From contig JBBSXC010000002.1 of assembly GCA_038045945.1 (NCBI GenBank), positions 1 through 16,171 on the forward strand: DNA of 16,171 nt. The letters run 5' to 3'. The notes beneath the pieces are model-generated. The model was not told where the DNA came from and did no database searches. It worked only from the letters and a program-made list of their open reading frames with translations. How positions within the stretch are numbered: position 1 is the first letter of the stretch; every line of letters begins with the position of its first letter. The DNA is from Nanobdellota archaeon (lineage in GTDB: Archaea > Nanobdellota > Nanobdellia > Pacearchaeales > GW2011-AR1). Positions 3,001-16,171 of the stretch are shown here, piece after piece. Position numbers and translations under genes: made by a program.

Positions 3001-3482
3001 CATTTGTCTCCAAATCTCATTAATAACCAGTCTGGGTATCCTTCACGTAATTGTGAGTGTCCTGCTGCCAAAGTCTTTTTTGGTCCGCAAAGACTTTCAT
3101 CAGTCGGTGCTATAGGGCACCTGCCCGTCCACTCATCTTTTCCTAAGCTTGAACTAACATATGTTATTATTGTGTCCGAGCTTGGATCAAAAGTTGTCCA
3201 ACCATCCTCATCTGCTCTTGGCTCTGCTATTTCTTTATCATCCTCTGAAGACCAGCATCCCAAATCTAGTTGCCAGTCTAATAATCCATCTCCATCGTTG
3301 TCTATTCCATCGTTACACTCAGTTACTATTGGGCTTAATTCCACATCCTTTCCTCCTTTTCCTGCTTCACCAGTTAGTGTTTGCGAACTTAGTCGCAAGA
3401 TCGTTATTGATAACAAAGCAATTATTATAATTATTAAGAATATTATTCTTTCATCATACTTTTTCACCAAACCTTTTTTCAC
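1..3482 (-). CDS. Large multidomain secreted/surface protein (>1160 aa, 3' end beyond window): N-terminal TM, acidic Cys motif, right-handed beta-helix, LamG-like jellyroll, Cys-rich repeats, beta domain, Gly linker
   Basis: Not in the ORF track because there is no stop inside the window. Manual translation of the open frame from GTG at 3482 (in-frame TAA at 3486-3488; alternative GTG at 3467) gives MKKGLVKKYDERIIFLIIIIIALLSITIL (TM), ECNDGIDNDGDGLLDWQLDLGC, and YVSSSLGKD...LREGYPDWLLMRFGDKW. Beta-helix-type Asn-ladder repeats follow (LIVEGNNF, IVRENIL, VENNFL, ITNNII, IEGNKI, VRNNII; ~1570-3200). LamG motifs YYNFDG, GKIGQALELDGINDYV, WTHVA and FYGKIDELKIFNRAL lie at ~935-1515. CGNGKVETGEECDDGN and CNDKIMNGDETGIDCGG lie at ~590-905, then LVFLVEHFTNY and SGGNGGGSGGGG. 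Confidence 0.9.
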   Translation of the reverse strand, partial: MKKGLVKKYDERIIFLIIIIIALLSITILRLSSQTLTGEAGKGGKDVELSPIVTECNDGIDNDGDGLLDWQLDLGCWSSEDDKEIAEPRADEDGWTTFDPSSDTIITYVSSSLGKDEWTGRCPIAPTDESLCGPKKTLAAGHSQLREGYPDWLLMRFGDKWYWESFGNPANQGTSGRSDKERLILGGYSTGETLEERPALVCGSYATRRSNNVVIRDLDFAVYSEENHCGGSIISGGGGKQFSNLIVEGNNFPSGGALNVQGYTNLEFRRNSVYDGWVTDGNGKITANLGAYTEQIDELLNEGNVYYSNGLKMGPSGERTANDPKVATWFLHNFYNQANNWNVIVRENILSDGAGEGLMDRAAGEVGKNLVENNFLAGNPMGITLGYTAPNFDWPSINSKVDRNVILEAVDLEGDGGWNIRGSGITASHLAANGQKPGFGRLEITNNIIALKWKAGLGQAIGVSGSVEELIIEGNKIYNFEGSGTGIEDNIGINLGMQLTGEPGTSYVRNNIIEQSKGVSVNGWPSEKLSFSSNTYYNTGLEGRYGFPTQHFNYGSISDAAWISNIEPDAKFAKTQFKDPEKATIAAYMESLGFPPEKQNRKSFTLEAIKNRRGKWDERFTADAINNFIRDKVSIVGEAIPKQLEENSYPIAEPIVYYNFDGDLKNSGENKGKDGIPQNEPKFGTGKIGQALELDGINDYVRIKGPLSIPGSVTITGWIYSENFERGGEIIVKNPINYEWTFMMNGDALAWRGSALGLGTARCTTKPVNGQWTHVAIRQIGNNAELYLDGERCTDIPGNNVGAVGNGPGDITIGAFGSDERNYDGQFYGKIDELKIFNRALTEQEIINDMNGVENGASVCGNGIKEGGEICDKSTQACFVGEESGIQSCKGDCSGYNSCQITTICGNGKVETGEECDDGNNNNNADSCTNQCLTNTPQTPKCNDKIMNGDETGIDCGGLVCDACTIPKTDSEKYKENFDGGKTTDLEKEEDLSKVPLTLERNGMGVIEFTNIIDFKKYDQTKTVNQILQKINDYIKIFNEKSGNILGTVSVDTGEQALKELSNEPATVTINIGGGKNINLLKVQRDGIDCEKPLCTVESYDSTTGELVFLVEHFTNYTVVENNETNNSYTPPASGGNGGGSGGGGGSIVKKNATSNNKTI

Positions 3483-3529: not shown

Positions 3530-4456
3530 TTATGGTATTCCGCTGTATTTGAAGTTTATTAGTACGAATATTATTATGAACATTATTGTGCTTATGAAGA
3601 ATAATGGGTATGTCATGTCCAAATTTACTTTTCTTCTTGATAATTTTAGCATTTCTAGCATTGATGCTTTTAGTTCTTCGTTGTTGTTTACTAGTGAGAA
3701 TTGTCCTGCTGTTTCGTAAGCCATTGCTTTTAGTGCTTCTTCGTCTAGTTTTGATACGTATCCTAATATGTTTTCTGCCCCTTTTGTTGTTCCTACTCCT
3801 AGCGTGTTTATAACTATCTCGTTTTGTTTAGCGTACTTTATTATTGCTTCTACTGTGTCTACGTTTATTTCTCCGTCACTTAGGACTATTATTGCTTTTG
3901 TGTCTTCTTCTTTGTACATTGTGCTTGCTGCTATCATTGCATTCATTATGTTTGTTCCTCCTACTCTGTTTACTCTTATGTTTCTTATTGCTTCTCTCAT
4001 TGGTTCTTTGTTTGCTGTTATTTCTTGTTCTATGAACGGTACTCCTGAGAATGACATTACTCCTATTCTTGTGCTTACTGGTGCGTTGTTTACGAATTCT
4101 GTTGCTGCTGTTTTTGCCGCTTCTATTCTGCTCGGTGATAAATCTGTTGTTTCCATGCTTTGTGATGTGTCTATTGCTATTACGAATGAGAATGTGCTTG
4201 CGCTTTTTGTTACGCTCATGTGCATTCCTGCGCTTGCTAGCGACATTATTGCAACTAGGATTATACTTAAATAAAGAACCGTCAGGTTCTTTGAAAAGAA
4301 TTGTATTCCGCTTATTCTGCTTATTGCGTCGAAATTTGCGAATTTTAGTGCTCTCATGTCATGTCTTTTTAATGAGTAGAAGTGTATGAATATTAGTGCT
4401 GGTATTATTAGTATTATTGCTAAATATTTTGGGTTTGTGAATGTGAATATTGCCAT
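3530..4456 (-). CDS. BatA-like membrane VWA domain protein
   Basis: N-terminal BatA-type double TM (FTNPKYLAIILIIPALIFIH), intact MIDAS AIDTSQSM, SRIEAAK, GGTNI, VLSDG and a C-terminal TM. It follows MoxR and DUF58. Confidence 0.9.
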   Translation of the reverse strand: MAIFTFTNPKYLAIILIIPALIFIHFYSLKRHDMRALKFANFDAISRISGIQFFSKNLTVLYLSIILVAIMSLASAGMHMSVTKSASTFSFVIAIDTSQSMETTDLSPSRIEAAKTAATEFVNNAPVSTRIGVMSFSGVPFIEQEITANKEPMREAIRNIRVNRVGGTNIMNAMIAASTMYKEEDTKAIIVLSDGEINVDTVEAIIKYAKQNEIVINTLGVGTTKGAENILGYVSKLDEEALKAMAYETAGQFSLVNNNEELKASMLEMLKLSRRKVNLDMTYPLFFISTIMFIIIFVLINFKYSGIP

Positions 4457-4520
4457 AGTTTGTTTTTTTGTGTTTTGTTTGTTTTTTCTTTATTTTTTAT
4501 CTTTTTTTTCTTGGAATTCT

Positions 4521-4540
4521 TGAAAATCTTTAGATTTTCA
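4521..4540. repeat. Perfect 9-bp inverted repeat TGAAAATCT-TT-AGATTTTCA (hairpin or operator)
   Basis: Read directly in the intergenic gap, 7 nt downstream of the DUF58 stop. Function unknown. Confidence 0.6.
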
Positions 4541-4547
4541 TACAGTT

Positions 4548-5459
4548 TTATGCTCCTTGTAGTATTACGGGTGCTGCTTTTTCTTGTGCTCTTTTTTTCA
4601 TGAATGATGCTAGGTAAAATGGGAAGTGTTTGTTTGTTAATAGCTCTATGAAGTCTGCTGGTGTGCTGTGGAACATTTTTTTTACTTCTTCTTCTTTTTT
4701 TCTTACGTAGTATTCATACTTGTTTTTTGCTACTGATGGGTTTACTACTAGTTTTTCTCCTGTTTGAGGGTTTTCTATTGTTACTTCTTCATCTATATCT
4801 GGTAGTTCTCTCTCTATTGGGTCTCTTATCATTATTCCCACTGTTTCTATTTGTGTTGATAATGCACTCAACTTTTTTTGGAAGTTTTTTGATAGGTGCA
4901 TGAAGTCGCTTACTATGAATATCCCTGTTAGGCTTTTGTCTAAGTGTTGCAAGAGGAAGTCTATTGCTCCTTCTATTTTTGTTTCTCCCCCATAGCTTTC
5001 TGTTCTTTTTAGTATGTCTGCGAATAGTGCGAATCTTTTTGTTCCTCCTTTTGGGTATGCGAACTCATAATATTTTCCTTTTGGCATTATGAATCCTACT
5101 TTGTCTCCGCTTGTTATTACTAGGTGTGCTAGTGCTACTGATACTTCTGCTGCGTATTCGCATTTTAGTTTGTTTGCGCTTCCGAATATCATGTTGTCTC
5201 CTAGGTCTATTATGAATACTATTTTTATGTCTCTTTCTTCTATGTATTGTTTTATTAGTGTTTTGTTAGCTCTGTAACTGGCTTTCCAGTCTATTAGTGC
5301 TGCGTCGTCGTCTGGGCTGTATACTCTGTATGAGTCGAATTCTAGTCCTTTTCCTCTAAATAGTATTCTGTATATTATTCTTTTTAGTTGGAATTTTCTC
5401 ATTGCTCCTTCGAATTCTGATATGTTTCTTGCGTAGTCTACGTTTAGTTCCCTTTCCAT
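4548..5459 (-). CDS. DUF58 family protein (MoxR-associated, vWA-like)
   Basis: Signature FRGKGLEFDSYRVYSPDDDAALIDWKASYR...KQYIEERD, GDKVG, IVSDF and IRDPIE. Directly downstream of MoxR. Confidence 0.92.
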   Translation of the reverse strand: MERELNVDYARNISEFEGAMRKFQLKRIIYRILFRGKGLEFDSYRVYSPDDDAALIDWKASYRANKTLIKQYIEERDIKIVFIIDLGDNMIFGSANKLKCEYAAEVSVALAHLVITSGDKVGFIMPKGKYYEFAYPKGGTKRFALFADILKRTESYGGETKIEGAIDFLLQHLDKSLTGIFIVSDFMHLSKNFQKKLSALSTQIETVGIMIRDPIERELPDIDEEVTIENPQTGEKLVVNPSVAKNKYEYYVRKKEEEVKKMFHSTPADFIELLTNKHFPFYLASFMKKRAQEKAAPVILQGA

Positions 5460-5463
5460 AGTG

Positions 5464-6561
5464 TTATGGTATTTCTACTTTGTCTAGAATTGCTTGTATT
5501 ACTTTTTCTGGTGTTACTTTTTCGCTTTGTGCTAGGTAGTTTAGTATCATTCTGTGTCTTAGTATTTCGAATGCTACTTTTCTTACGTCGCTTGGTATTA
5601 CAAAGTTTCTTCCGTTTATTAGTGCTTCTGCTTTGCTTGCTATGAATAATCCTATGGTTGCGCGTGGACTGCACCCCATCTCTAAGAATTGGTTGTATTC
5701 TGTTGCTTGGTTGTCTCTTGTTGCTTCTACTATTCTTACTATGTATTCTTCTATTTCTTTACTTAAGTATATGTCTTTTACTAGTATTTGCATTCTTACT
5801 ATTTCTTCTGGTGTTAGTATTGGTTTTATTTCGAAATCTTCGAATTTGAATAGGCTCATGTTTCTTTTCATTATTACTTTTTCTTCGTCTTTGCTTGGGT
5901 AGTCCATTAGTATTTTGAATAGGAATCTGTCTACTTGTGCTTCTGGTAAAAAGTATACTCCGCTTGTTTCTACGGGGTTTTCTGTTGCCATTACGAAGAA
6001 TGGTTTTGGTAAGGGGTATGTTTCTTTTCCTATTGTTACGTTTCTTTCTTGCATTGCTTCTAGTAGTGCGCTTTGTGTTTTTGGTGGACTTCTGTTTATT
6101 TCGTCTGCTACTAAAAAGTTTGCGAATATTGGTCCTTTTACTACTTCCATTCCTTTGTCTGGTGTGTATGTTGTTATTCCTACTATGTCTGTTGGCAAGA
6201 GGTCTACTGTGAATTGTACTCTTTTTGCTTCGCATCCTGTTACTTTTGCTAGTGTTATTACTAGTAGTGTTTTTGCTATTCCTGGTACTCCTTCTAGTAG
6301 TACGTGTCCGTTGCATAGTAGTCCTCTTATTAGTCCTTCAACTACTTTTTCTTGTCCTACTACTACTTTTTTTATCTCGTTTTTTACTTCTTGTAGTTTT
6401 TTCCCGCATGTTGCTACTTCTTCTTCTGTTGCTCTTCCCCCATAGTCTCCTTCTTGTGTTGGTGTTTGTCCTTTGAATTTTTTTGTTTCTTCAGAATTAG
6501 TTTTTTTTGTTTTTGTATCAATTCTTTTTTTGTTTATTACTTTCTCTTTATTCTTCTTCAT
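5464..6561 (-). CDS. moxR: MoxR family AAA+ ATPase
   Basis: Walker A GHVLLEGVPGIAKT, RVQFTVDLLPTDIVG, Walker B LVADEINR, SALLEAMQE, ATENPVE, LPEAQVDRF and GCSPRA. Start placed at ATG 6561 because GAGGTG (6568-6573) lies 6 nt upstream; the track's GTG at 6570 is part of that site. Confidence 0.95.
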   Translation of the reverse strand: MKKNKEKVINKKRIDTKTKKTNSEETKKFKGQTPTQEGDYGGRATEEEVATCGKKLQEVKNEIKKVVVGQEKVVEGLIRGLLCNGHVLLEGVPGIAKTLLVITLAKVTGCEAKRVQFTVDLLPTDIVGITTYTPDKGMEVVKGPIFANFLVADEINRSPPKTQSALLEAMQERNVTIGKETYPLPKPFFVMATENPVETSGVYFLPEAQVDRFLFKILMDYPSKDEEKVIMKRNMSLFKFEDFEIKPILTPEEIVRMQILVKDIYLSKEIEEYIVRIVEATRDNQATEYNQFLEMGCSPRATIGLFIASKAEALINGRNFVIPSDVRKVAFEILRHRMILNYLAQSEKVTPEKVIQAILDKVEIP

Positions 6562-6567
6562 AATTAG

Positions 6568-6606
6568 CACCTCTCCTCATTTACTTGTTTTTTTAGATTA
6601 TTAAAT
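6568..6606 (-). promoter_or_regulatory. Shine-Dalgarno GAGGTG (6568-6573) and TATA-like ATTTAATA (6599-6606) for moxR
   Basis: GAGGTG is a partial match to the archaeal GGAGGTGA consensus. The TATA-like box sits in the 66-nt intergenic gap. Confidence 0.5.
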
Positions 6607-6627
6607 GTTTTCTTCATTGTTTTCTCT

Positions 6628-9600
6628 TTATATTTTGAATTCTGAAAAGTTTGGTTCTCTTCTCATTCTCATTCTGTTGAATAAGTGGTATACGAATATT
6701 AACGATAGTATTCCTAGTGTTCCAGATACTAAGTATACTAGTATGTCTCTTGTTGGCGTTTTTGGGCCGATTATTGTTGGTCTTTGTGCTATTGAGTTTT
6801 TACATGCTCTTACTACTTCGTTGCTGTATTGCCATGCTTCGTCTGCTTTTCCTTCAGCTAATGCCTTTTTTGCTCTGTCTAGTGATTCTTTTAGTTCTGC
6901 GCACTCAGGGTTTTGTACTAGTAGTTCATCTGTGAATAGTATTATTTGTTCTACTTCTGTTTTGTTTGTTTCTATTATGTCTAGGAAGAATTTTCCCCAG
7001 TCTGAGAAGCTAGGGTCCCTTACTGTTCCATTAATTATTATTTCTACTCTTCCTGTCTTTTTTGTGTCTATTGATATTGTCATGTTTGTTGTTTTTTTCT
7101 GTCCTGATGTTAATGAATCAAAAAATGTTTGTCCGAAACTTACGTTTACTATTCCCGTGACGTTTTCGTTTACTACTACTAAACTTTTTAGGTTTATCCC
7201 TGTTAGTTTTGTTTGTCCTGAGTTTAGTAGTGTTAATGGTACGACTATTTGGTCGTACTTGAATGATGATATTTTGTCAGGCAATAATAATTTTAGGCTT
7301 ACTGGTCTTGATGCTCCTCCTCCGCCTCCAACCCCTCCTCCGCTGCTTGGCGTTGTTACCGATGTTGATGATGGTGTTAGGTTTACTGAGAAGTTGTTGC
7401 TTTTTGCTAGGCTATAGGTATCATTTGCTATTATTTGGAAGTATTCTATTCCTGTTACTGTTGACGTTGATACATTGAATTTTGGTAATTCTCCTGATGA
7501 GTTTGTCCAGTTTGTTATTGTTGCTGTAAATGATCCGCTTATTTGTGAAAAACTCGAATTCATCCTTAAGAATGAGAATTCTACTGAGTAATTGTTACAT
7601 GTGTTTGAGTTCACGTCTCCGTCTGAGAAGTAGTCTGTTAGTGTGTATGTTATACTTCCTCCTGCTGTAGTGTTTGCTATTATTGACGCAAAGCTTACTG
7701 GATAGTTTGTGTGGTTTACGCTCAAGTTTATTATTGTTGTGTTGCTAAAGTACGGGTTTGATATGTTTATAGTTAAATTTTTCGCCCCACCACATGTTGT
7801 TTCGTCTGTTAGGTTTAGGTATAATGCTAATGTTACGTTTGCTCCTCCTGCTCCGTTTCCTACGCTCGTGTTTCTCACTATTCCGTCAATTATTATTGTG
7901 TAGTTTAGGTTGTCTCCTACTGTGTGGTTTCCTGTCATGTTTATCATTATGGTAGAGTTTTCGCTTGAGTATACTACTGTTGGGTTGTATGCTACTATTC
8001 TTACTTGGTCGTATACGTTTATCCAAAAGTCCATTGATGATTGTGCGTTGCTTGTGTCGTTTACAGATACGTTTATGTGGTATGATCCGCTTATTGTTGA
8101 ATTAATACTCAGGTTTATTATTCCAGTACTTGTATTGAACGTGCTCGAATTTGCGAAGCTTGTTCCTTGTAAGAATGAGTATGTTATGTTATATGTGCCC
8201 CCGCTATCAGTGCTATTGTCTTCTCGATCGGTGATGTTCATTCTTATTGTCAGGTTTGCCCCTTGGTATGTTGATTGGTTGCTTATTTGTGTTATGTTTG
8301 GTGCGTGGTTTATCGAGTTAATTGTTATTGTGAATGAGCTCGTTGCGTTTAGTCCGCTTTGGTCTTGTGCTTGCACATAAACATTATAAATTTTTTGCAG
8401 TGCTCCTCCTAAGTCGCTTTTGTTTGGTGTGAATGTTGCTGAATAAATCATCAGGTCTGGTTGGCTTGGTGTAGGTACAGAAAGTAGTGTTAGATTGAAT
8501 AGGTTAGTATTAGGTCCGACTATTGTAAAGTTGAAGCTGATATTTTCATTATAGATTCCTTTTTGTTTTATTCTGAAATCGTTGTCTCTAACATTTATCT
8601 GCATTGACCCTGAAGAACTATCTTCACTTACTGTTGGTCCAGCAAAAGAATCAATTGTTGGTGTGTCGTTAATATTGCTTACGTATATGCTTATGTTTGT
8701 TACTCCTGGTGTTCTTCCGTCTGATGCGTTTATTGTTATGTTATGGTATCCTACGTCTATGTCTATTGGTGTAAAGTTTATTATTCCTTGCGAGTTTGAT
8801 CCGTTATAGAATTCTGGGAATTGTGTTTGGCTTAGGTTGTAATAACTGAAATTAATTAAGTCTCCATCAGGGTCGCTTACATTGTTGCTTAGGTTTAAGT
8901 AAAAGTTTGTGTTCTCTTCTACTGTAAAGTTTTGCCCTATGCTCCATTCTGGTGCTGAGTTTCCTACTAGTTGTATTATGAATATGAAGTTTGATCCTGA
9001 AAATCCGTTATTGTCTACTACGCTTAGGTTTATTGTGTTATTTCCTAGTGTTGTAGAGTTTGCTGTGAATGTTAGTGATACTTGTGATCTGTTGTTTGTG
9101 TCTCCAGTTTTTGCTATTGTTATCCAGGGTATTGTTGATCCGCTCATGTTTTTTGCTGTGAAGTTTATTGATTCATTAAATCCCCCGTTACTCACGTTTT
9201 TGTTAGGCACTAATAAGTCGTTGTCTGTTGCGTTTATGTATAGGGTGTATGTGTTTCCGTTGAATCCTGTAAAGTTTGTTGTTGGAAAGAGGGATACTGA
9301 GTCGTTAACGTTGAATACTTGTAGTCTTATTAGTCTTGATGAATACTTGTTTGGTGGGTATCCTATATTGTCTAATACTGATATGTTTATTGACCAGTTT
9401 CCTACTTGGTAATCATCAGGTGTGAAGTTTATTGCTGTTGATGAGTTATAGTTTACTGGTGTTACGTTTGTTGCGTTCAAAAACCATGTGAAATTACTTA
9501 CGTATGTTAGGTTTGCTAATTCGTCAATGTCTGATGCGTTCACATAACAGGAAAATGGTGTGTTTTCTGATATGTTGAAGTATGGTGTGCTTGCTCCGAA

Positions 9601-10797
9601 TTCTTGTCCGCAAATGTATGTTAAGTTTGGTGCTTCATTGATGTTATTAATCACGAAGAATAGAGAATAATTTTTTTGTCCGTCTTGGGCAAATCCGTAT
9701 CCGCTAGCGTTATCTGTTACTGAGATGTTTATTGTGTAGTTTCCTACGTCATCCCTTCCTGCTGGTGTGAAGTTTACAAACATTGCTGTCGTGTTATAAG
9801 TTGTGTTGTATTGTGTTACGTTCCATATTGTGCAGTTTGGCCCTGTGTTTCTACTACTCCAATTTGCTAGTATGCATGATGAGAATGTTACGTTAAATCT
9901 TAATGGCAAGTGTGGTTCTTCATCTATTGCGAATATTACTGATGTGAAGTTGTTTCCTGGTTCCGTTGCGTTTATTGTTATGTTTTGGAAGTTTTGTAAT
10001 AGTGGCACGTCATTAATTTCTGTTATGTTTAGTGCTAGTAGTGATCCTTGGTCTAATGATTCTGTATCTCTAACTTTTAGTTCTATTTGCATATCTGTCC
10101 CGTTGTGTTTGCTTAGTGTTGCATTAATTTTTAGTATTCCTGTGCTTACGTTTATGCTGAATATTGATGAGTTTACAGTGTAGTTTGATCCTAGGCTAAA
10201 TGTTAAATTATCGTTTGTGTCTGGTTCTGTGATGTTTGCTGTCATGTTATAAGTGCATATTGTGTCTTCTACGCATCCTAAAATGTCGTGTGTTAGGCTG
10301 CTTCCGTCAAAGTTTATCCAGTCAGCTCCCGATTCTTTTGATATTACTGGTATCGTGTTTGTTATTAGAAAATTTTCTTGTAGTATGCTTTGTGCGCTTG
10401 CGTTATAGCACCATACTTCGAACGTGTGGTTTCCTTTGTATGTGAATGTTCTGTTATAGTAGTATGGTAGTGCTGTTGTGTTATATGTCATGTTTACATA
10501 AGCACCGTATGTTCCTGTAAAGTTGAATCTTATACTACATGTGTCTGGTACGTTTGCTCCGGTAATGTTTGTGTAGTTTGCGTAGAATGTTACGTTATAA
10601 GTGCTTCTTTCTGTTATTGGGGGGTTTTCTGTGTCGTCCCATATTGATAAGTTGTAGTTTGTGCTAGAGTTGTTTGTTCTGGTTAATGCTTGTGTTGTTT
10701 GTAATGATGCTAATACTGAAATCATTATTGTTATTGTTAGTATAACTAAGAATATTTTCTCGTTCTTTATTGCCTGATCTCTTTTTTTCTTTTTCAT
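6628..10797 (-). CDS. Giant membrane-anchored surface protein with tandem cadherin-like/Ig-like repeats (putative adhesin)
   Basis: Signal/TM at the N-terminus. Units of ~100-115 aa end in EINDVP, NINEAP, NVNDSV, GNSAP, NINDTP and SINHAP, with DxD motifs (DIDE, DNDL, DPDGD) and recurring NFTPxxxxVG. After the SSGGGVGGGGG linker come an Ig-like domain, a helical segment with two Cys, a C-terminal TM and a basic tail. Confidence 0.88.
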   Translation of the reverse strand: MKKKKRDQAIKNEKIFLVILTITIMISVLASLQTTQALTRTNNSSTNYNLSIWDDTENPPITERSTYNVTFYANYTNITGANVPDTCSIRFNFTGTYGAYVNMTYNTTALPYYYNRTFTYKGNHTFEVWCYNASAQSILQENFLITNTIPVISKESGADWINFDGSSLTHDILGCVEDTICTYNMTANITEPDTNDNLTFSLGSNYTVNSSIFSINVSTGILKINATLSKHNGTDMQIELKVRDTESLDQGSLLALNITEINDVPLLQNFQNITINATEPGNNFTSVIFAIDEEPHLPLRFNVTFSSCILANWSSRNTGPNCTIWNVTQYNTTYNTTAMFVNFTPAGRDDVGNYTINISVTDNASGYGFAQDGQKNYSLFFVINNINEAPNLTYICGQEFGASTPYFNISENTPFSCYVNASDIDELANLTYVSNFTWFLNATNVTPVNYNSSTAINFTPDDYQVGNWSINISVLDNIGYPPNKYSSRLIRLQVFNVNDSVSLFPTTNFTGFNGNTYTLYINATDNDLLVPNKNVSNGGFNESINFTAKNMSGSTIPWITIAKTGDTNNRSQVSLTFTANSTTLGNNTINLSVVDNNGFSGSNFIFIIQLVGNSAPEWSIGQNFTVEENTNFYLNLSNNVSDPDGDLINFSYYNLSQTQFPEFYNGSNSQGIINFTPIDIDVGYHNITINASDGRTPGVTNISIYVSNINDTPTIDSFAGPTVSEDSSSGSMQINVRDNDFRIKQKGIYNENISFNFTIVGPNTNLFNLTLLSVPTPSQPDLMIYSATFTPNKSDLGGALQKIYNVYVQAQDQSGLNATSSFTITINSINHAPNITQISNQSTYQGANLTIRMNITDREDNSTDSGGTYNITYSFLQGTSFANSSTFNTSTGIINLSINSTISGSYHINVSVNDTSNAQSSMDFWINVYDQVRIVAYNPTVVYSSENSTIMINMTGNHTVGDNLNYTIIIDGIVRNTSVGNGAGGANVTLALYLNLTDETTCGGAKNLTINISNPYFSNTTIINLSVNHTNYPVSFASIIANTTAGGSITYTLTDYFSDGDVNSNTCNNYSVEFSFLRMNSSFSQISGSFTATITNWTNSSGELPKFNVSTSTVTGIEYFQIIANDTYSLAKSNNFSVNLTPSSTSVTTPSSGGGVGGGGGASRPVSLKLLLPDKISSFKYDQIVVPLTLLNSGQTKLTGINLKSLVVVNENVTGIVNVSFGQTFFDSLTSGQKKTTNMTISIDTKKTGRVEIIINGTVRDPSFSDWGKFFLDIIETNKTEVEQIILFTDELLVQNPECAELKESLDRAKKALAEGKADEAWQYSNEVVRACKNSIAQRPTIIGPKTPTRDILVYLVSGTLGILSLIFVYHLFNRMRMRREPNFSEFKI

Positions 10798-10814
10798 GTC
10801 AAATTTTTGTTCTT

Positions 10815-12758
10815 TTATTGTTGGTCGTTTTCCTCAATTCTTTTCTTGATTGCGAATAATTTGTATAATGTGTATATTATTGCTACTATTAGTAATAGTA
10901 TTAGTATTATCAGTAAGTATAACAAGTAGTTTATTTTTTTTGGTTTTTCTATCTGACAAGAATTTGGGCATGGACCTCCACAGTCTATTGCTTCTTCTCC
11001 TTGGTTTTGTATTGTGTCTGAGCATGTTGGGCATTGTGAGCATGGACCTCCACAGTCTACTAATACTTCGCATGATTTGTCATGACAATTTTTCACGTTG
11101 TCATTACATGATGGGTTTGCTACGTAGAAGCATTCTTCTGTGACGTTAGGTTTTTTTGTTGTTGTTTTGCAATTGTTTATGTCTTTACAGTCTAATAGTT
11201 TTATTCCGCATTCTTCTTCGCTCCATCCTTCTAATCGGCATTTTATTTCTATTATTCCTCTGCTTAAGTCGTCTAATAATTTGTTTTTGTATAGTCCGTT
11301 AATGTTTTGGCACATTGCGGTGTTATCACAAACCCATCTTTCTTGGCATGTTCCTCCACCTCCTCCGCCTCCCCCTCCAGTGCTTGATCTTGGTGGGTTG
11401 CTTATTGTTATTGTCCATGATCTGCTATCGTTTAGTTCTCCGTCGCTTACTCTTACTGATACGTTGAATGTTCCTCCATCTGAGAATGTTTTGTTGAACT
11501 GGTTTGTTAGCGATGTTTCTAGCACGCCATTTATTGACCAGTACGCGCTTGGTGTTGTGTCATCTGGGTCTTCAGTTGATACGTTGAAGCTTATTGTTAG
11601 TGGTGGTGTACTACTTATTGTTGTGGTTGTTGGGTAGTATGATGTTATGTTTGGCGGCCTATTTTGGTTTGTTACTGTTAGTTCAAAGTTTGAGCAGTTG
11701 TATCCTGGACCGCCTGTGTATCCGCAGTATGTTGCGTTTGGGTGTATGCTCGTGTTTAGTCCTTTATCTCTTACGCATACGCTTACGTTGTATAATCCTA
11801 CTACTGATGCGTTTGCTGTCATGTTTATTTTTCCGCTAGTAGAATTTATTGTGAATATTGGTATTCCTGATATGAACGTTACGTTGTAGGTTAGGTTTCC
11901 TCCGCTGACGTTTCCGTCTTCTGTGTCGTTTGCTGTTATTTGTTTTATGAATTTTGCGTTAAACCATACTGTTTGTGCTCCTAATAGTTCTATGCTAGGG
12001 TTATGGTTTACTGCCACTACGCTTATGTTTGTTATTGCTGTGTCTGCTCTGCTTCCGTCTGATGCTGACACGTTTTCTCTGTAACTTCCTACTTGCGATT
12101 TTGTTAGTGTTCCGGAGAATATTTCTGCTATTGTTAAGTTTCCTGTTTGTGATAGTTTTGTTATGAAGAATGGGTTTATTGGTGTCATTGATACGCTTAT
12201 TGTGTCTAAGTCTTCGTCAGTTATGTTTATTAGGTGTGATAAGAATGAGTCTTCACAGGCTAATATTTGCCCTGAGAGGTTTAGTATTTGTGGTGCGGAG
12301 TTTGATATTGTTACTGAGAGTGTTACGTTTGTGTTTCCTACTTGTCCTCCTGTTAGGTTTGCGTATACTGCTAGTTTGTTTGTTCCTGTGATTAATGTTA
12401 TTGTTGTGTTTGGTGTGAATACTTGTCTGTTAACTATTATTGTTCCGCTTCCGTTGTATAATGTGTAGAACCATGTTTGTATTGTTTTTTCTGCTGATAC
12501 GTTTAAGTCTACGCTTTTGTTTTGTGATAAGTTGAACGTGTATGTTGTGTTTGTTGGGCTTGCTATTGTTATGTTTGGCGCGTTTACTACTACTTGTACG
12601 AATAATTGTGCTACTGTGCTTGAACTTCCGAATAAAAAATCGAAGTAACTTGCGAATGTTGATATCTTCCCTACTTCTGGTTTTGTGTAGCTTGCTATCC
12701 AGAAAATGTTTACTAGCATTATTAGTAAGAATCCTAATACCACCAGCTTTTTGTACAT
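10815..12758 (-). CDS. Membrane-anchored surface protein: cadherin/PKD-like Ig repeats, poly-Gly linker, Cys-rich region
   Basis: N-terminal TM; SNSAPQI, VNHNPSI, QNRPPNI, DEDLD and DPDD motifs; G9 linker; two CxD...DCGGPC repeats; C-terminal TM plus KKR. Start moved to ATG 12758 (track used TTG 12770) based on TATA spacing. Confidence 0.88.
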   Translation of the reverse strand: MYKKLVVLGFLLIMLVNIFWIASYTKPEVGKISTFASYFDFLFGSSSTVAQLFVQVVVNAPNITIASPTNTTYTFNLSQNKSVDLNVSAEKTIQTWFYTLYNGSGTIIVNRQVFTPNTTITLITGTNKLAVYANLTGGQVGNTNVTLSVTISNSAPQILNLSGQILACEDSFLSHLINITDEDLDTISVSMTPINPFFITKLSQTGNLTIAEIFSGTLTKSQVGSYRENVSASDGSRADTAITNISVVAVNHNPSIELLGAQTVWFNAKFIKQITANDTEDGNVSGGNLTYNVTFISGIPIFTINSTSGKINMTANASVVGLYNVSVCVRDKGLNTSIHPNATYCGYTGGPGYNCSNFELTVTNQNRPPNITSYYPTTTTISSTPPLTISFNVSTEDPDDTTPSAYWSINGVLETSLTNQFNKTFSDGGTFNVSVRVSDGELNDSRSWTITISNPPRSSTGGGGGGGGGTCQERWVCDNTAMCQNINGLYKNKLLDDLSRGIIEIKCRLEGWSEEECGIKLLDCKDINNCKTTTKKPNVTEECFYVANPSCNDNVKNCHDKSCEVLVDCGGPCSQCPTCSDTIQNQGEEAIDCGGPCPNSCQIEKPKKINYLLYLLIILILLLIVAIIYTLYKLFAIKKRIEENDQQ

Positions 12759-12780
12759 GATTAATATCAATTAAAATGAA

Positions 12781-12788
12781 TATTAAAA
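12781..12788 (-). promoter_or_regulatory. Putative archaeal TATA box (TTTTAATA)
   Basis: Ends 22 nt upstream of ATG 12758. Confidence 0.55.
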
Positions 12789-12858
12789 CCTTATGTTCAG
12801 ACGATAATTCGTATTTTTTGCGGCTATAATTCTTTGGAAATAATTGCTTTTAGTTCTT

Positions 12859-13284
12859 CTAAATTATTGTTACTATTTTTATTATTACTTTTCCTTTATA
12901 TTCCCCGTTTTTTGCTTCTTTTGGTATTTTTACGGTTAATAATACTTCTTTTTTCTCTTTTGGTGAGATTACTATTTTTTGTTCTACAAAGTATGGTTCT
13001 ATTTCTTCACTAGCAGTTATTTTTGCTATTACTTCTTTGTTGTAATTGTTGTTTATCTCTATTTTTGCTGTTCCTGATCCTCCAGGCATCATTTTTCCGA
13101 AGAATACTACTCCCGGTATTACTCCTATCCCCCCTTGGTCTGATATTATGAAGTACGATTCTAAAACTTTTTCTTCTAGTAGGTAGGTGTCTTGTTTTGT
13201 TGTGCTCGCAATTATTGTTATTATTGACGAAATTATTAGTATTATTGTTATAATCAGTACTATTTTTGTTGTTTTATTTTTCAT
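12859..13284 (-). CDS. Small N-terminally anchored single Ig-like domain protein (~141 aa)
   Basis: MKNKTTK plus a TM, then VFFGKMMPGG...IEINN...IPKEAKNGEYKGKVII. ATG 13284 overlaps the upstream gene by 11 nt, which is more plausible than GTG 13323 (50-nt overlap). Confidence 0.8.
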   Translation of the reverse strand: MKNKTTKIVLIITIILIISSIITIIASTTKQDTYLLEEKVLESYFIISDQGGIGVIPGVVFFGKMMPGGSGTAKIEINNNYNKEVIAKITASEEIEPYFVEQKIVISPKEKKEVLLTVKIPKEAKNGEYKGKVIIKIVTII

Positions 13285-14434
13285 TTTTTTCTTGAGATTT
13301 TTTGTTTGTTTGTTTTCCCACATTTTTTCTCTTTTTATAAATTATTATCCCTGCTATTGTTAGTATTATGATTATTGCTGTACTTATTGCTGTTATCATT
13401 ATCATGCTGTTTTGTTTTGATACTTCTAAGAATCCTTTTGTGCTTGAACTTTTTTCTGAGTAGTGCAAGATTATTTCTATTTCGTATTTTCCCGTTTTTA
13501 TGTTTGTTGCGTCTGCGAACCCTTTTAGTTGATAATTTTGAAATCCTGATACACTTACCGGCGGTGTTAGGAAGCTCATTCCTTCTTCTCCTGTTTTTGT
13601 TAGGCTTACGTTTGCGTATACTCCGTCTATTTTGTCTTTCCAGTCGTTTTGTATAGTTATTTCGAAAGGATTTATTTTTCCACTAATGATTTTTTTTGTG
13701 TAGTTTATTACTCTTATGTTTAGTTCTCCTATTCTGAAGTTGTGCTCATTTATTGATGGTTTTTCTCCTCCGTAATCTACTATTGATACTGCTCTGTAAT
13801 CTCCTGGTGTGTATTCTGATGTGTCTATCTTTTTTGTGTATTCTGCAGTTTTTGTTGGTTCTAATAATTCTGCTCCCTTATCAGTGAAATACATTTTTTC
13901 TATTAATTCTTCTCCGGAAAATATTTCTAGGCTAGGGTTTGTGAATAAGCTTTCTTTTCCTCTATTTACTATTTGTATTTTTGCTTCTGCTTCTACTCCT
14001 TTGTTTACGCTGTCTATTTGTAGTGTTGATTCTAAGTATTTTCCTGGGTATGGCACGTATATTTTTATTAGTGCTCCTACTGATATTGCTGTTCCTAATC
14101 CTCCTTTAGGGTCTACTTCTTGTTTTGCGAATATGTACAGAAGATTTGTTCCTACTTTTTTTGCTTCTGATGGTAATTTTATTATCGCTTTGAATGTTCC
14201 TGATCCTTGCATTTTTGTTTTGTCAAACCTTACGCTTTCTAGCATGTCTCCTTCTGCTGAGATGTTTGTTTTTATTTCTGGTGTTGTGTCTACTGAGTAT
14301 TCTATTGTGAATTCTTTTCCTGCTTCGTAGTCTACTTCTATTATTGCTGGTCTTATTCCTAGGTGTGCTGATGCTATGCTTATTGATAGAATTATCAGTA
14401 TTGATAATTTTATTATTTGCTCACCTTTTTTCAT
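13274..14434 (-). CDS. Secreted, C-terminally anchored protein with ~3 Ig-like domains
   Basis: Class I-like signal (ISIASA^HLGIRPA), beta-strand patterns with IVNRG, PGDYRA and TGKYEIEI, a C-terminal TM and a Lys-rich tail. Confidence 0.85.
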   Translation of the reverse strand: MKKGEQIIKLSILIILSISIASAHLGIRPAIIEVDYEAGKEFTIEYSVDTTPEIKTNISAEGDMLESVRFDKTKMQGSGTFKAIIKLPSEAKKVGTNLLYIFAKQEVDPKGGLGTAISVGALIKIYVPYPGKYLESTLQIDSVNKGVEAEAKIQIVNRGKESLFTNPSLEIFSGEELIEKMYFTDKGAELLEPTKTAEYTKKIDTSEYTPGDYRAVSIVDYGGEKPSINEHNFRIGELNIRVINYTKKIISGKINPFEITIQNDWKDKIDGVYANVSLTKTGEEGMSFLTPPVSVSGFQNYQLKGFADATNIKTGKYEIEIILHYSEKSSSTKGFLEVSKQNSMIMITAISTAIIIILTIAGIIIYKKRKNVGKQTNKKSQEKNEK

Positions 14435-14456
14435 TAGTTAAATTAGATTTCTTTCG

Positions 14457-14464
14457 TTTATAAA
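14457..14464 (-). promoter_or_regulatory. Archaeal TATA box (TTTATAAA)
   Basis: Consensus TATA ending 22 nt upstream of ATG 14434. Confidence 0.65.
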
Positions 14465-14466
14465 TT

Positions 14467-14485
14467 ATGTCAAGAATCTTGATAT
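14467..14485. promoter_or_regulatory. Palindrome ATgTCAAGA-A-TCTTGAtAT abutting the TATA box (candidate operator)
   Basis: Perfect core at 14470-14482. Extra TCTTGA half-sites at 14491-14496 and 14517-14522, and TCTTGC at 14539-14544. Confidence 0.45.
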
Positions 14486-14554
14486 TCGCTTCTTGAGCAT
14501 ACGAAAACTAATGTTTTCTTGATTTCTAAAAGAATTTTTCTTGCTCGACCTTTT

Positions 14555-14625
14555 TTATGCTGCTGCGGCTGCTGTTGCTGTTAGTGTGCTTGATAGTGCT
14601 CCTGTTGATCCGTCGTATGGTACTG
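14555..14625. repeat. Direct repeat copy 1 (69/71 identical to 16101-16171)
   Basis: Direct comparison; both mismatches are synonymous Ala codons. Confidence 0.95.
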
Positions 14626-15199
14626 CTAGTATTATGCTTATGTTTATTTGGTCTTGTGTGTCTATGTATCCTAGTTGGCTGCAGTATTGGTCTCCTGGTG
14701 AAGTTATGTTCGGGTCTCGCCATAGGCTTAGGTTGCTTACTAGTGCTCCGTTGCATGCTCCTGCGTCGCTGCTTGTTACGTTTAGTTGGTATCTTCTGTT
14801 TCCTTCGCTTCCTGCGAATAGTCCTGTTGCGTTTTTATCTGATGATAATTTTATTGTTACGTTTGTTGTTCCAATGTTTTCTAAAGCTAATGGTGTTATT
14901 CCGCTAGTACTCCAGTTTCCTCTTGTTACTACAGGTCCTGCATTTGCCGCTAGTAGTGATGCATTGTTTTGTCCGTTGTCTATGCTTCCTGCTCCCCAGT
15001 TTATTGTGTCTCGTGTGAAGTTTACACTTACTACTGTTGCTACTGTTACGTTCACGTATCCGCTTGTTCCAAATCCTGTTATCTCACTAATTTTTTGGTA
15101 TTTGTTTAGTGCTAAGAAAGAATTTGTTGCTGCGAATCCTACAGCAATTATTGCTAATAAAAGCACAACATACCCTAGACGATTATTTTTATTTTTCAT
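14555..15199 (-). CDS. Secreted beta-sandwich protein, paralog C (putative filament subunit)
   Basis: N-terminal TM, ITGFG, GYVNVTV, RGNWSTSG, LENIG, two Cys and PYDG...LSSTLTAT. Clear paralog of 15480-16091. 10 N-x-S/T sequons. Confidence 0.88.
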   Translation of the reverse strand: MKNKNNRLGYVVLLLAIIAVGFAATNSFLALNKYQKISEITGFGTSGYVNVTVATVVSVNFTRDTINWGAGSIDNGQNNASLLAANAGPVVTRGNWSTSGITPLALENIGTTNVTIKLSSDKNATGLFAGSEGNRRYQLNVTSSDAGACNGALVSNLSLWRDPNITSPGDQYCSQLGYIDTQDQINISIILAVPYDGSTGALSSTLTATAAAAA

Positions 15200-15202
15200 G
15201 AT

Positions 15203-15397
15203 TTATCCGCTCCCGTTTGATCCTGCCTGAGGATTTGGTACTACTGTTAATTCTACATTTGCTTGATTGTTTCCTTCTGCTTGAGGATTATTGTATAATT
15301 GTTTATTTATGTTTAATGACATCGTCATAACTATTGAGAATACTGATAAAAGTATTGCGACAACAAGCAAAGTTACTATTAATCTATCGGACACCAT
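15203..15397 (-). CDS. Small single-TM protein (~64 aa) with one extracellular beta-strand
   Basis: MVSDRLIVTLLVVAILLSVFSIVMTM (TM), a polar linker and ANVELTVVP. Its stop is 3 nt before the next ATG, and a TATA box lies upstream. Alternative start at 15409. Confidence 0.78.
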   Translation of the reverse strand: MVSDRLIVTLLVVAILLSVFSIVMTMSLNINKQLYNNPQAEGNNQANVELTVVPNPQAGSNGSG

Positions 15398-15425
15398 TTT
15401 TCTTATCATACTTAGATTTATTCTG

Positions 15426-15433
15426 TTTATAAA
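15426..15433 (-). promoter_or_regulatory. Archaeal TATA box (TTTATAAA) preceded by purine-rich BRE-like AACAAAG
   Basis: In the intergenic gap. It predicts a transcription start near 15403, favouring ATG 15397. Confidence 0.62.
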
Positions 15434-15479
15434 CTTTGTTGAGAATGACTGACTAGTAATTTTTTATTTATTTCTCTTT

Positions 15480-16091
15480 TTACGGCGCTGCTGAGATTGT
15501 TGCTGTTATTGTGTCTGATAATATTCCACTATTTCCGTCATATGGTATTGTTAGTAAGAAGTCTATTCTTAGTGTGTCTTGGTCGCTCAGGTATCCTAAT
15601 TGTTCGCAGAATAAATATCCGCTTGTGTTTACGTTTCTGAAAGTCGAGTTTGATAATGCTCCAGGACTACAGCTTCCTGTTTCGTTGCTTGTTATATTCC
15701 ACATGTATCTTCTGTGCCCTTGGCTTCCTCCGAATAGTGAACTTGCGTTTTTGTTTGTGCTCAGTGTTAGTGTAACGTTTCTTGATCCTATGTTCTCTAG
15801 TACTAATCCGCTCATTCCGCTAGTGCTCCAGTTTCCCCTTAGTACTGATGGCCCAGAGGTTTCTAATGTTGCGTTGCTTTGTCCATCGTCAATGCTTCCC
15901 GGTCCGAAGTTTAGTGTTTCTTGTGTGAAGTTTACACTAATTATTGTTTCCACTGTTATGTTTACGTATCCTTCTGATCCTGCTAGTCCCGATAATCCTT
16001 TAATGAAACTTTGTGGTAAGTTGTAAGAAATTATTGTGTTTAGTATTAGTACGATTGTTATTGTTATTAATACTAACTTTTGAGAATTCAT
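15480..16091 (-). CDS. Secreted beta-sandwich protein, paralog B (putative filament subunit)
   Basis: TM, LSGLAG, GYVNITV, RGNWSTSG, LENIG, two Cys and PYDG...LSDTITAT. 10 sequons. Confidence 0.88.
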   Translation of the reverse strand: MNSQKLVLITITIVLILNTIISYNLPQSFIKGLSGLAGSEGYVNITVETIISVNFTQETLNFGPGSIDDGQSNATLETSGPSVLRGNWSTSGMSGLVLENIGSRNVTLTLSTNKNASSLFGGSQGHRRYMWNITSNETGSCSPGALSNSTFRNVNTSGYLFCEQLGYLSDQDTLRIDFLLTIPYDGNSGILSDTITATISAAP

Positions 16092-16100
16092 TTTCTTTTT

Positions 16101-16171
16101 TTATGCTGCTGCTGCCGCTGTTGCTGTTAGTGTGCTTGATAGTGCTCCTGTTGATCCGTCGTATGGTACTG
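16101..16171 (-). CDS. 3' end of a third paralog (A), truncated by the window edge
   Basis: Encodes ...VPYDGSTGALSSTLTATAAAAA*, identical to the C-terminus of 14555-15199. Not in the ORF track. Confidence 0.85.
   Translation of the reverse strand, partial: VPYDGSTGALSSTLTATAAAAA

Follow-up and report, generated by a model that had tools for sequence, protein, structure and literature searches.

The WxL-domain proteins encoded by the Enterococcus elr operon are described as polymerising by donor-strand exchange (Sleutel et al., bioRxiv 10.64898/2026.10.17.759780). According to that preprint, ElrE, which comprises a DUF916 domain, a DUF3324 domain and a transmembrane (TM) segment, is the proven chaperone of the WxL pilus; the modelled tip is ElrA, whose payload varies and whose C-terminal domain is WxL; and the modelled terminator is ElrB, a small anchored protein with a donor strand and no acceptor domain. 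The same source gives the donor consensus as [S/T]-x-[G/A]-x-[V/I]-x-F, reports the system from 48 of 4,698 screened genera, all of them in Bacillota, and revises the older platform model of WxL clusters to a pilus. The Pam pilus of bacteria of the candidate phyla radiation (CPR) is reported to consist of Sec-type immunoglobulin (Ig)-like pilins joined by donor-strand exchange without an usher, together with a pair of PapD-like chaperones held in the membrane by C-terminal TM segments, a tip subunit of one domain and a terminator likewise anchored by a TM segment, and its description places it in CPR only (Troman et al., PMC13278184). Here we analyse a surface-protein gene cluster of a Nanobdellota archaeon, contained in a 16,171-nt stretch of DNA (hereafter the window) that represents the first 16,171 bases of the 23,011-base contig C2, and we compare it with these systems.

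The cluster consists of two modules with a single transcription direction. Module A (12859-16171, extending beyond the window to C2:22887) encodes a candidate giant LamG adhesin, the proteins s187 and Ig423, a TM mini-protein, three copies of a small beta protein denoted SB, the Ig-like membrane protein Ig386 and the small protein s154. Module B (3530-12770) encodes the cadherin-like proteins cad651 and cad1389 followed by a MoxR-DUF58-VWA trio. We regard it as an even call that the product of module A is a fibre resembling the Elr/WxL and Pam pili, assembled without an usher by donor-strand exchange under the guidance of chaperones. Such a fibre is the best-fitting mechanism because the gene set matches those of Elr/WxL and Pam, the family of the Ig membrane proteins shows distant homology to DUF3324 in 16 of 34 members, the SB proteins carry a donor-like strand, and the mini-proteins offer a strand and nothing else beyond their anchor. 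Part by part, the SB proteins correspond to ElrC/D, the giant to ElrA, Ig386 and Ig423 to ElrE, and the mini-protein to ElrB; usher and ATPase are absent from both systems, and a DUF3324 domain appears to be common to them by sequence. An earlier sequence-only reading of the window had proposed a non-type-IV filament or attachment apparatus, of which a conserved non-type-IV surface system stands, whereas polymerisation itself is still a proposal. The gene inventory of that reading was borne out: the cluster is co-oriented and contains at least three paralogous small beta proteins (the third as an edge fragment of ~23 codons), a TM mini-protein (mini68), two anchored Ig proteins (Ig386 and s154), two giant cadherin-like proteins, and moxR-DUF58-VWA genes confirmed by Pfam and NCBIfam profiles (Table 1). 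As it had also stated, no type IV ATPase (T2SSE), platform protein (T2SSF), usher or sortase was matched among the window proteins in Pfam or NCBIfam, nor was a prepilin peptidase.

From the observed gene content, homologies, conservation and linkage, we infer a scheme of export, cleavage, strand exchange and host attachment in which each part has a role. The SB proteins would be exported and may be processed near a conserved TG[YF]A motif, and their N-terminal amphipathic strand, [TS]-x-[GA]-x-[VI]-N-[LIV]-[TS]-[VI], would slot into the following subunit's beta sandwich. The DUF3324-related Ig proteins would hold subunits until hand-over, Ig423 serving the giant and Ig386 the SB proteins. The giant adhesin, with its SB-like end, would cap the tip and bear the binding payload, the SB paralogs would form the fibre shaft, and the strand-only TM mini-protein would plug the last subunit and hold the fibre at the membrane. 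For module B we propose a separate adhesin unit, in which the MoxR, DUF58 and BatA-like VWA proteins could serve the folding, insertion or state of the cadherin-like proteins.

The SB proteins constitute a family of their own. SB203 and SB214 are 53% identical over 157 aa (E 3e-58), and Pfam and NCBIfam returned no match for either of them or for Ig386; across 148 SB members, Pfam assigned no family. A word-indexed search retrieved 21 proteins, and an exhaustive search with a hidden Markov model (HMM) of SB raised the number to 1883 representative clusters at E<=1e-3, with 351 at the stricter E<=1e-30; almost every member is 190-240 aa long. Each SB protein comprises a short polar N-terminus, a hydrophobic helix of ~20 residues, a linker of 12-15 residues and then the best-conserved block of the family, and has one domain of about 165 aa. 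In the 148-member alignment this block spans positions 41-53, with T41 in 124 members, G42 in 146, [YF] at 43, A44 in 111, [TS]45 in 106, [GA]47 in 146, [VI]49 in 109, N50 in 139, [LIV]51 in 147, [TS]52 in 142 and [VI]53 in 146. The conserved strand is amphipathic and bears a conserved N-x-T/S sequon on its polar face; it fits three of the four positions of the WxL donor consensus, with a donor function that is putative. In SB203, the N-terminal hydrophobic helix is followed by the TG[YF]A / G-x-V-N-[LI]-T-[VI] strand, and the protein carries 10 N-glycosylation sequons. Two invariant Cys residues and a C-terminal T-x-T-A-T-A strand complete the family signature.

Structure prediction of SB was less informative. 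The AlphaFold2 (AF2) model, built on an 18-row alignment, reached a predicted local distance difference test (pLDDT) score of 59, with a helix at residues 6-35 and a confident beta sandwich only at residues 100-214; the poor scores at residues 40-100 are most probably due to the thin alignment and not to an incomplete fold. A comparison of SB with known pilin folds had been suggested as a check on the sequence-only reading, and it gave no reliable match: on this poor model, VIA returned noise-level Z scores of 4.6 for the TasA-like pilin AbpA (7ueg) and 4.0 for cannulae, and Pfam gave no Peptidase_M73 match. The top Foldseek rows were chaperone-usher pilins (Fim/Cup/Pap/Cfa) at E 0.01-0.3, a weak lead below significance. 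The nearest named ESM cluster was WxL (0.79, a lead only), and the ESM Atlas neighbours were from Nanobdellota. A three-copy SB complex prediction (residues 40-214, 148-row alignment) scored 0.47, 0.00 and 0.00 and was counted neither way. Another suggested check asked whether the subunits model as complete folds; Ig386 does, as three complete Ig domains.

The TM mini-proteins are the candidate terminators. In mini68, a TM helix and a polar linker precede a single amphipathic beta strand (ANVELTVV) and a Pro, and the protein aligns to positions 1-51 of the SB HMM, that is, TM, linker and first strand, with an E of 4e-5 among 15 sequences that is partly TM-driven. The general build of these proteins is a TM segment, a polar linker of ~20-30 aa and the strand G/A-x-V/I-x-L/I/V-x-V/I, usually followed by Pro. 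Their genes immediately precede SB genes, as two copies on C2 and at eight other loci, three of them identified by BLASTP (L016, L027, L028) and five by a pattern search of 17 loci (L018, L023, L025, L042, L047). All five pattern-found genes are located -11 to +89 nt from the SB start, and the remaining 12 of the 17 loci gave no match. The second copy on C2, past the 100-N scaffold gap that ends the window (C2:16172-16271), is nearly identical to mini68. The gap sits within a tandem repeat whose unit is a mini-protein gene plus an SB gene; the SB paralogs at this locus may therefore number more than three.

The Ig membrane proteins are the candidate chaperones. PF11797 (DUF3324, WxLIP_HBD) was the commonest Pfam match of the Ig386/Ig423 family, found in 16 of 34 members at E<=1 and above its cut-off of 28.9 bits in two of them (P0032, 31.3 bits; P0033, 29.5 bits). 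In Ig423 the match lies in the domain preceding the TM segment and covers profile positions 29-132 of 138 (E 5.9e-4), at 20.2 bits and hence under the cut-off. Ig386 was modelled by AF2 at pLDDT 92, with a signal peptide, Ig-like sandwiches at residues 26-127, 134-235 and 240-339, and a C-terminal TM helix at 344-385. Its first domain matched MSP (Z 9.9) and the YadV chaperone (Z 9.6), both tied with many generic Ig folds, and its ESM neighbours included CARDB, NEW3 and the S-layer families COG1470 and COG1361. A further ESM neighbour (0.95) is a cluster whose 473-aa proteins are 77% bacterial and come most often from Candidatus Uhriibacteriota (CPR); a link to CPR chaperone-like proteins is possible. 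The s154 protein has a basic N-terminus, a TM segment and one Ig-like domain, with a weak, partial match to WxLIP_PGBD (PF06030, 5e-4).

The giants resemble ElrA in combining a variable payload with a C-terminal pilin-type domain, here SB-like. All 15 C-termini tested, from 13 loci, matched the SB HMM (E 6.5e-16 to 2.9e-8), most strongly at HMM positions 92-203; fourteen of them belong to giants or other large proteins, with read lengths of 314-2290 aa that a contig end truncates in several cases, and one to an SB-like protein of 199 aa. The TG[YF]A motif is kept by none of the SB-like C-termini of the large proteins. The giant on C2 carries LamG-type repeats as its payload and has no C-terminal TM segment of its own. 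A tip subunit lacking the entire N-terminal half of SB was considered and not upheld, as some giants align from SB position ~46.

To evaluate conservation, we drew 32 loci from the genomes of 30 relatives, favouring those in which an SB or MoxR match lay on a long contig, and labelled their open reading frames (ORFs) with HMMs and BLASTP searches built from the window proteins. The order giant-s187-Ig423-(mini)-SBxn-Ig386-s154-cad651-cad1389-MoxR-DUF58-VWA, as far as the loci span, recurs in 10 other genomes (G018, G021, G035, G049, G054, G056, G059, G292, G105 and, with the second half inverted, G004); the homologs are thus syntenic rather than scattered, and the arrangement of the cluster is not due to chance. 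Among 25 SB-bearing loci, likewise picked for long contigs, the SB gene is followed directly by an Ig-TM gene in 22, with two lacking the pairing and one unevaluable at a contig end, and an s154-type gene follows the Ig gene in 20. Among the named relatives returned, the closest locus belongs to Candidatus Pacearchaeota archaeon (L049), whose SB is 58% identical, and a more distant one to Candidatus Woesearchaeota archaeon (L050). SB was detected in 23 of 61 genomes of the order to which the window belongs and MoxR (AAA_3) in 18 of 61; in a phylum-wide sample of 301 high-quality genomes, which includes two flagged as unpublished (G303, G304), the respective counts were 149 and 192.

The sequence-only reading had treated the cluster as one surface system coupled to the MoxR genes, with MoxR-DUF58-VWA acting as assembly chaperone of the fibre. 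The adjacency holds, since modules A and B lie next to each other in 11 examined loci, and in the lineage of the window they are probably co-expressed, but the two proved separable and the chaperone assignment was not supported. In G039 (98% complete), G046 and G048, module A is followed by at least 10 kb of unrelated DNA, and no AAA_3 match was found genome-wide; in family f20, SB occurs in 20 of 36 genomes and MoxR in none. In G084, module A lies at 657-677 kb, and a cadherin-like giant with MoxR-DUF58-VWA lies at 441-461 kb, 216 kb apart. Because module A exists without MoxR and module B can stand far from it, MoxR goes with the cadherin-like pair and not with the fibre.

Within module B, cad651 comprises cadherin/PKD-like repeats, a Cys-rich stalk, a TM segment and a short tail, with 31 sequons, and cad1389 carries 112 sequons and a conserved C-terminus composed of an Ig domain, a helical hairpin (A-x-Q-A-C-K), a TM segment and a short basic tail, all of which are retained in its distant orthologs. 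The matches of both proteins to cadherin, PKD, Big_9 and tandem-95 families all fell below the curated cut-offs. Sequon density is 8.1 per 100 aa in cad1389, 6.2 in the giant, 4.8 in cad651 and 4.7-4.9 in SB, against 0.2-0.8 in Ig386, Ig423, s154 and the cytoplasmic proteins; judging by these sites, we propose that the cadherin-like type I membrane proteins are heavily N-glycosylated. In other families (L019, L020, L022, L046, L047), the cad651-type protein ends in a helical K/R/Y-rich stretch of at least 60 aa without a hydrophobic segment, in place of the TM helix and short tail seen in the family of the window and its close relatives. A conserved cytoplasmic tail of the cadherin-like proteins was considered as a docking site for MoxR and discarded, the tails being short, basic and variable.

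MoxR carries the Walker A motif GVPGIAKT and the Walker B motif DEINR. In the VWA protein, a pair of TM helices opens the chain, followed by the VWA domain, which bears a D-x-S-x-S metal ion-dependent adhesion site (MIDAS; here D-T-S-Q-S), and by a C-terminal TM segment. Its N-terminus matched BatA at 4.1e-4 (21.2 bits, under the 25.9 cut-off), and its matches to PRK13685 (2.8e-26) and BatB (5.9e-14) were also under their cut-offs. The three genes are spaced by 4 and 91 nt, as in a Bat-type trio within one operon. This trio is consistently partnered by the cadherin-like pair: at all 12 loci with a MoxR ortholog at least 53% identical to that of the window, the gene immediately upstream is cadherin-like. 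A second MoxR type, common in the phylum, is 42-46% identical to that of the window and has its own DUF58 gene; since it has no cadherin-like or SB neighbours at eight loci (L030, L032-L038), we assign it to a different Bat-like operon. In two relatives (G001:C6:3525-5582 and G019:C1:2934-4937), ~1.6 kb of sequence separates the two parts of the AAA_3 match (profile positions 1-78 and 76-131), both of which lie in a single open frame of 872-909 aa; the pattern resembles an intein or another large insertion in the ATPase domain.

MoxR-DUF58-BatA/BatB genes form Bat-type operons in bacteria. In archaea, a secretion-system role was predicted for an arCOG01314-MoxR-vWA-Ig-like S-layer neighbourhood (Makarova et al. 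2015, PMC5898192), and MoxR/vWA pairs were proposed as modulators of type IV pili (PMC4858521), according to the respective accounts. Module B resembles these arrangements in grouping a MoxR AAA+ protein with DUF58 and with a membrane VWA protein whose MIDAS is intact, with Ig-like surface proteins nearby. It differs from them in its partners, two cadherin-like, sequon-rich type I membrane proteins, and the window has neither an arCOG01314-type flavodoxin-like protein nor BatB-E/TPR genes.

Several observations weigh against a donor-strand fibre. The polymer interface of SB is putative, and an incomplete SB fold was not demonstrated because the monomer model is poor; moreover, the 55 low-confidence residues, which carry the conserved motifs, probably fold anyway. 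Foldseek with the SB model gave zero matches at E<=1e-3, and the best hits of a wide VIA search (phage baseplate, capsid jelly rolls, GOLD) reached a noise-level Z of 5.2. Position P14 of the SB strand is aliphatic, with F in one of 148 members, in contrast to the Phe of WxL proteins; the WxL domain (PF13731) was matched by none of the 148 SB members at E<=1 and in none of the 61 related genomes at E<=5. Judged by sequence, SB and module A are not members of the WxL family. Ig386, with its three complete Ig domains, is unlike the two-lobed chaperone shape, its fold matches are generic (CARDB, BsuPI, GH2 Ig, RbmA, MSP/YadV), and it has no PF11797 match itself. Some giants retain a weak counterpart of the first strand in cis, from SB position ~46, unlike ElrA. 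Finally, the hydrophobic helix of SB lies 15-18 residues ahead of the putative processing site, a long distance for signal peptidase I, so SB may stay membrane-bound.

Several of these points would suit a static surface complex or coat, in which SB is anchored by its N-terminal helix, the Ig-TM proteins are stalks and the giants dock non-covalently through their SB-like domain, as in the older platform model of WxL clusters or a SlaA/SlaB-type envelope. We grade this as a serious alternative, if a rather unlikely one. The long N-terminal helix of SB (AF2 6-35) without a canonical cleavage site nearby is consistent with it, as are the three complete Ig domains and TM helix of Ig386, the S-layer families COG1470 and COG1361 among the ESM structure neighbours of that protein, giants that carry an SB domain yet no C-terminal TM segment of their own, and the abundance of sequons in SB, as in envelope glycoproteins. 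However, a static complex leaves unexplained both the strand-only mini-proteins and the fact that conservation in SB peaks at the junction strand, and the platform model of the homologous-looking WxL clusters has itself given way to a pilus in the preprint describing them (10.64898/2026.10.17.759780). An improbable reading is that of a single machine, with MoxR-DUF58-VWA as the assembly chaperone of the whole apparatus including the SB fibre. Modules A and B are indeed adjacent and co-oriented, ~8-13 kb apart, in the window and in nine of the 10 other genomes (module B being inverted in G004), but this reading is contradicted by the loci of G039, G046, G048 and f20, where module A stands without MoxR, and by the distant module B of G084. 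Furthermore, MoxR and DUF58 have no export signal, whereas assembly of the fibre would take place outside the membrane.

Most improbable of all is a type IV reading, in which SB would be a pilin-like subunit relying for assembly on type IV machinery whose genes lie outside the cluster. SB does show the layout of archaeal pilins, a hydrophobic helix at the N-terminus ahead of a beta domain, and other contigs (C1, C3, C4) encode ATPases (T2SSE), platform proteins (T2SSF) and a prepilin peptidase (A24). Nevertheless, a class III-like (K/R)(G/A/S) site occurs in only nine of the 148 SB proteins and a Pilin_N match in only one (E 0.032), and on these signal-peptide counts we rejected this reading. 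The constant partners of SB are, in addition, Ig-TM proteins, and no ATPase or platform gene appeared among the labelled neighbours at the 25 SB loci, a weak argument given that the labels covered only the query set.

The features of the cluster are listed in Table 1 in transcription order. The source genome comprises 847 kb in seven contigs and is 93% complete; the sequencing runs listed for it are four DNA runs from one groundwater study, with no RNA data set among them. Every gene of the window lies on the minus strand, and the genes are close-packed, with intergenic gaps of -50 to +120 nt, or up to +145 nt once the genes beyond the window are included. The small ORF between Ig423 and the second mini-protein copy encodes no hydrophobic segment and has no counterpart among the labelled genes of the other loci. 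At the opposite end of the window, the 1160-aa LamG protein begins with an N-terminal TM segment followed by L-T-G-E-A-G, resembling the TG[YF]A junction of SB; it continues with a LamG domain and acidic Cys repeats and shows a weak Nup98-type autopeptidase match (2.9e-5, below cut-off). No counterpart of this protein was found downstream of the VWA gene in the loci of the relatives.

Table 1. Genes of the cluster on contig C2, in transcription order; positions with the prefix C2 lie beyond the window.
Feature	Position	Strand	Remark
LamG-repeat giant, >=1429 aa	C2:18598-22887	-	first in transcription order
s187	C2:18057-18620	-	
Ig423	C2:16789-18060	-	
Small ORF, ~76 aa, apparently cytoplasmic	C2:16413-16643		between Ig423 and second mini-protein copy
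Second mini-protein copy, start directly past gap, cut by gap	up to C2:16409	-	
Third SB paralog, final ~23 codons	16104..16171	-	96% identity to SB214 residues 192-214
SB203, candidate fibre subunit	15480..16091	-	SB HMM 6e-68
mini68, 68-aa TM mini-protein, candidate membrane-anchored terminator/anchor	15203..15409	-	
SB214, SB203 paralog, candidate fibre subunit	14555..15199	-	
Ig386, candidate membrane-anchored chaperone or stalk	13274..14434	-	
s154, small anchored Ig protein	12859..13323	-	
cad651, 651 aa, cadherin-like type I membrane protein	10815..12770	-	
cad1389, 1389 aa, giant cadherin-like repeat protein	6628..10797	-	
MoxR-type AAA+ ATPase	5464..6570	-	AAA_3 9.3e-57, AAA_lid_2 1.2e-17
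DUF58 protein	4548..5459	-	DUF58 1.5e-37
BatA-like membrane VWA protein	3530..4456	-	VWA_2 9e-21
LamG/Cys-repeat surface protein, 1160 aa, runs off contig	3..3482	-	Laminin_G_3 4.8e-19

How DPANN archaea attach to their hosts is largely unexplained, and the cluster, detected in roughly one in two of the high-quality phylum genomes sampled, supplies named candidates for shaft, tip, chaperone and anchor. If the donor-strand fibre is real, a pilus-assembly principle that the available descriptions confine to Bacillota or to CPR would reach Archaea, and would then span bacteria and archaea as well as the two groups of ultrasmall episymbionts. The MoxR-DUF58-VWA trio, long mysterious, would gain in the cadherin-like pair a concrete and constant candidate client.

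Literature searches found no description of this archaeal cluster, and its differences from the described systems are several. With respect to Elr/WxL, the anchor of module A would be the N-terminal TM segment of the mini-protein instead of LPxTG and sortase (no LPxTG motif was seen by eye in the window proteins), the Ig-TM protein has three domains with no clear DUF916 found, and the host is an archaeon without peptidoglycan. With Pam, module A has in common an ultrasmall episymbiont as host, C-terminally TM-anchored Ig proteins, a candidate tip, a candidate TM-anchored terminator and the absence of a trans-envelope machine; going by their description, the Pam pilins are set apart by two domains, a mass of 39-55 kDa and an internal linker strand, compared with the single-domain SB. 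Chaperone-usher pili (Fim/Pap/Csu/CFA-I) resemble the proposed fibre in donor-strand complementation and exchange and differ from it in that module A has no usher, no outer membrane to cross and, among the window proteins, no PapD_N match in Pfam or NCBIfam. We put it at somewhat less than an even chance that DPANN archaea possess their own lineage of donor-strand-exchange pili, usher-less and guided by membrane chaperones, as a third one beside Elr/WxL and Pam, with a DUF3324 chaperone domain in common with WxL, a new pilin family in SB (at least 1883 representative clusters), a new type of terminator in the TM-anchored bare donor strand, and giant lectin-type tip adhesins that contact the host. 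In this comparison, the assembly principle and one chaperone domain are already known; what the cluster would add is SB as a candidate pilin family, a putative terminator made of a TM segment and a bare strand, an archaeon as host, and linkage to a cadherin-like pair that MoxR may serve.

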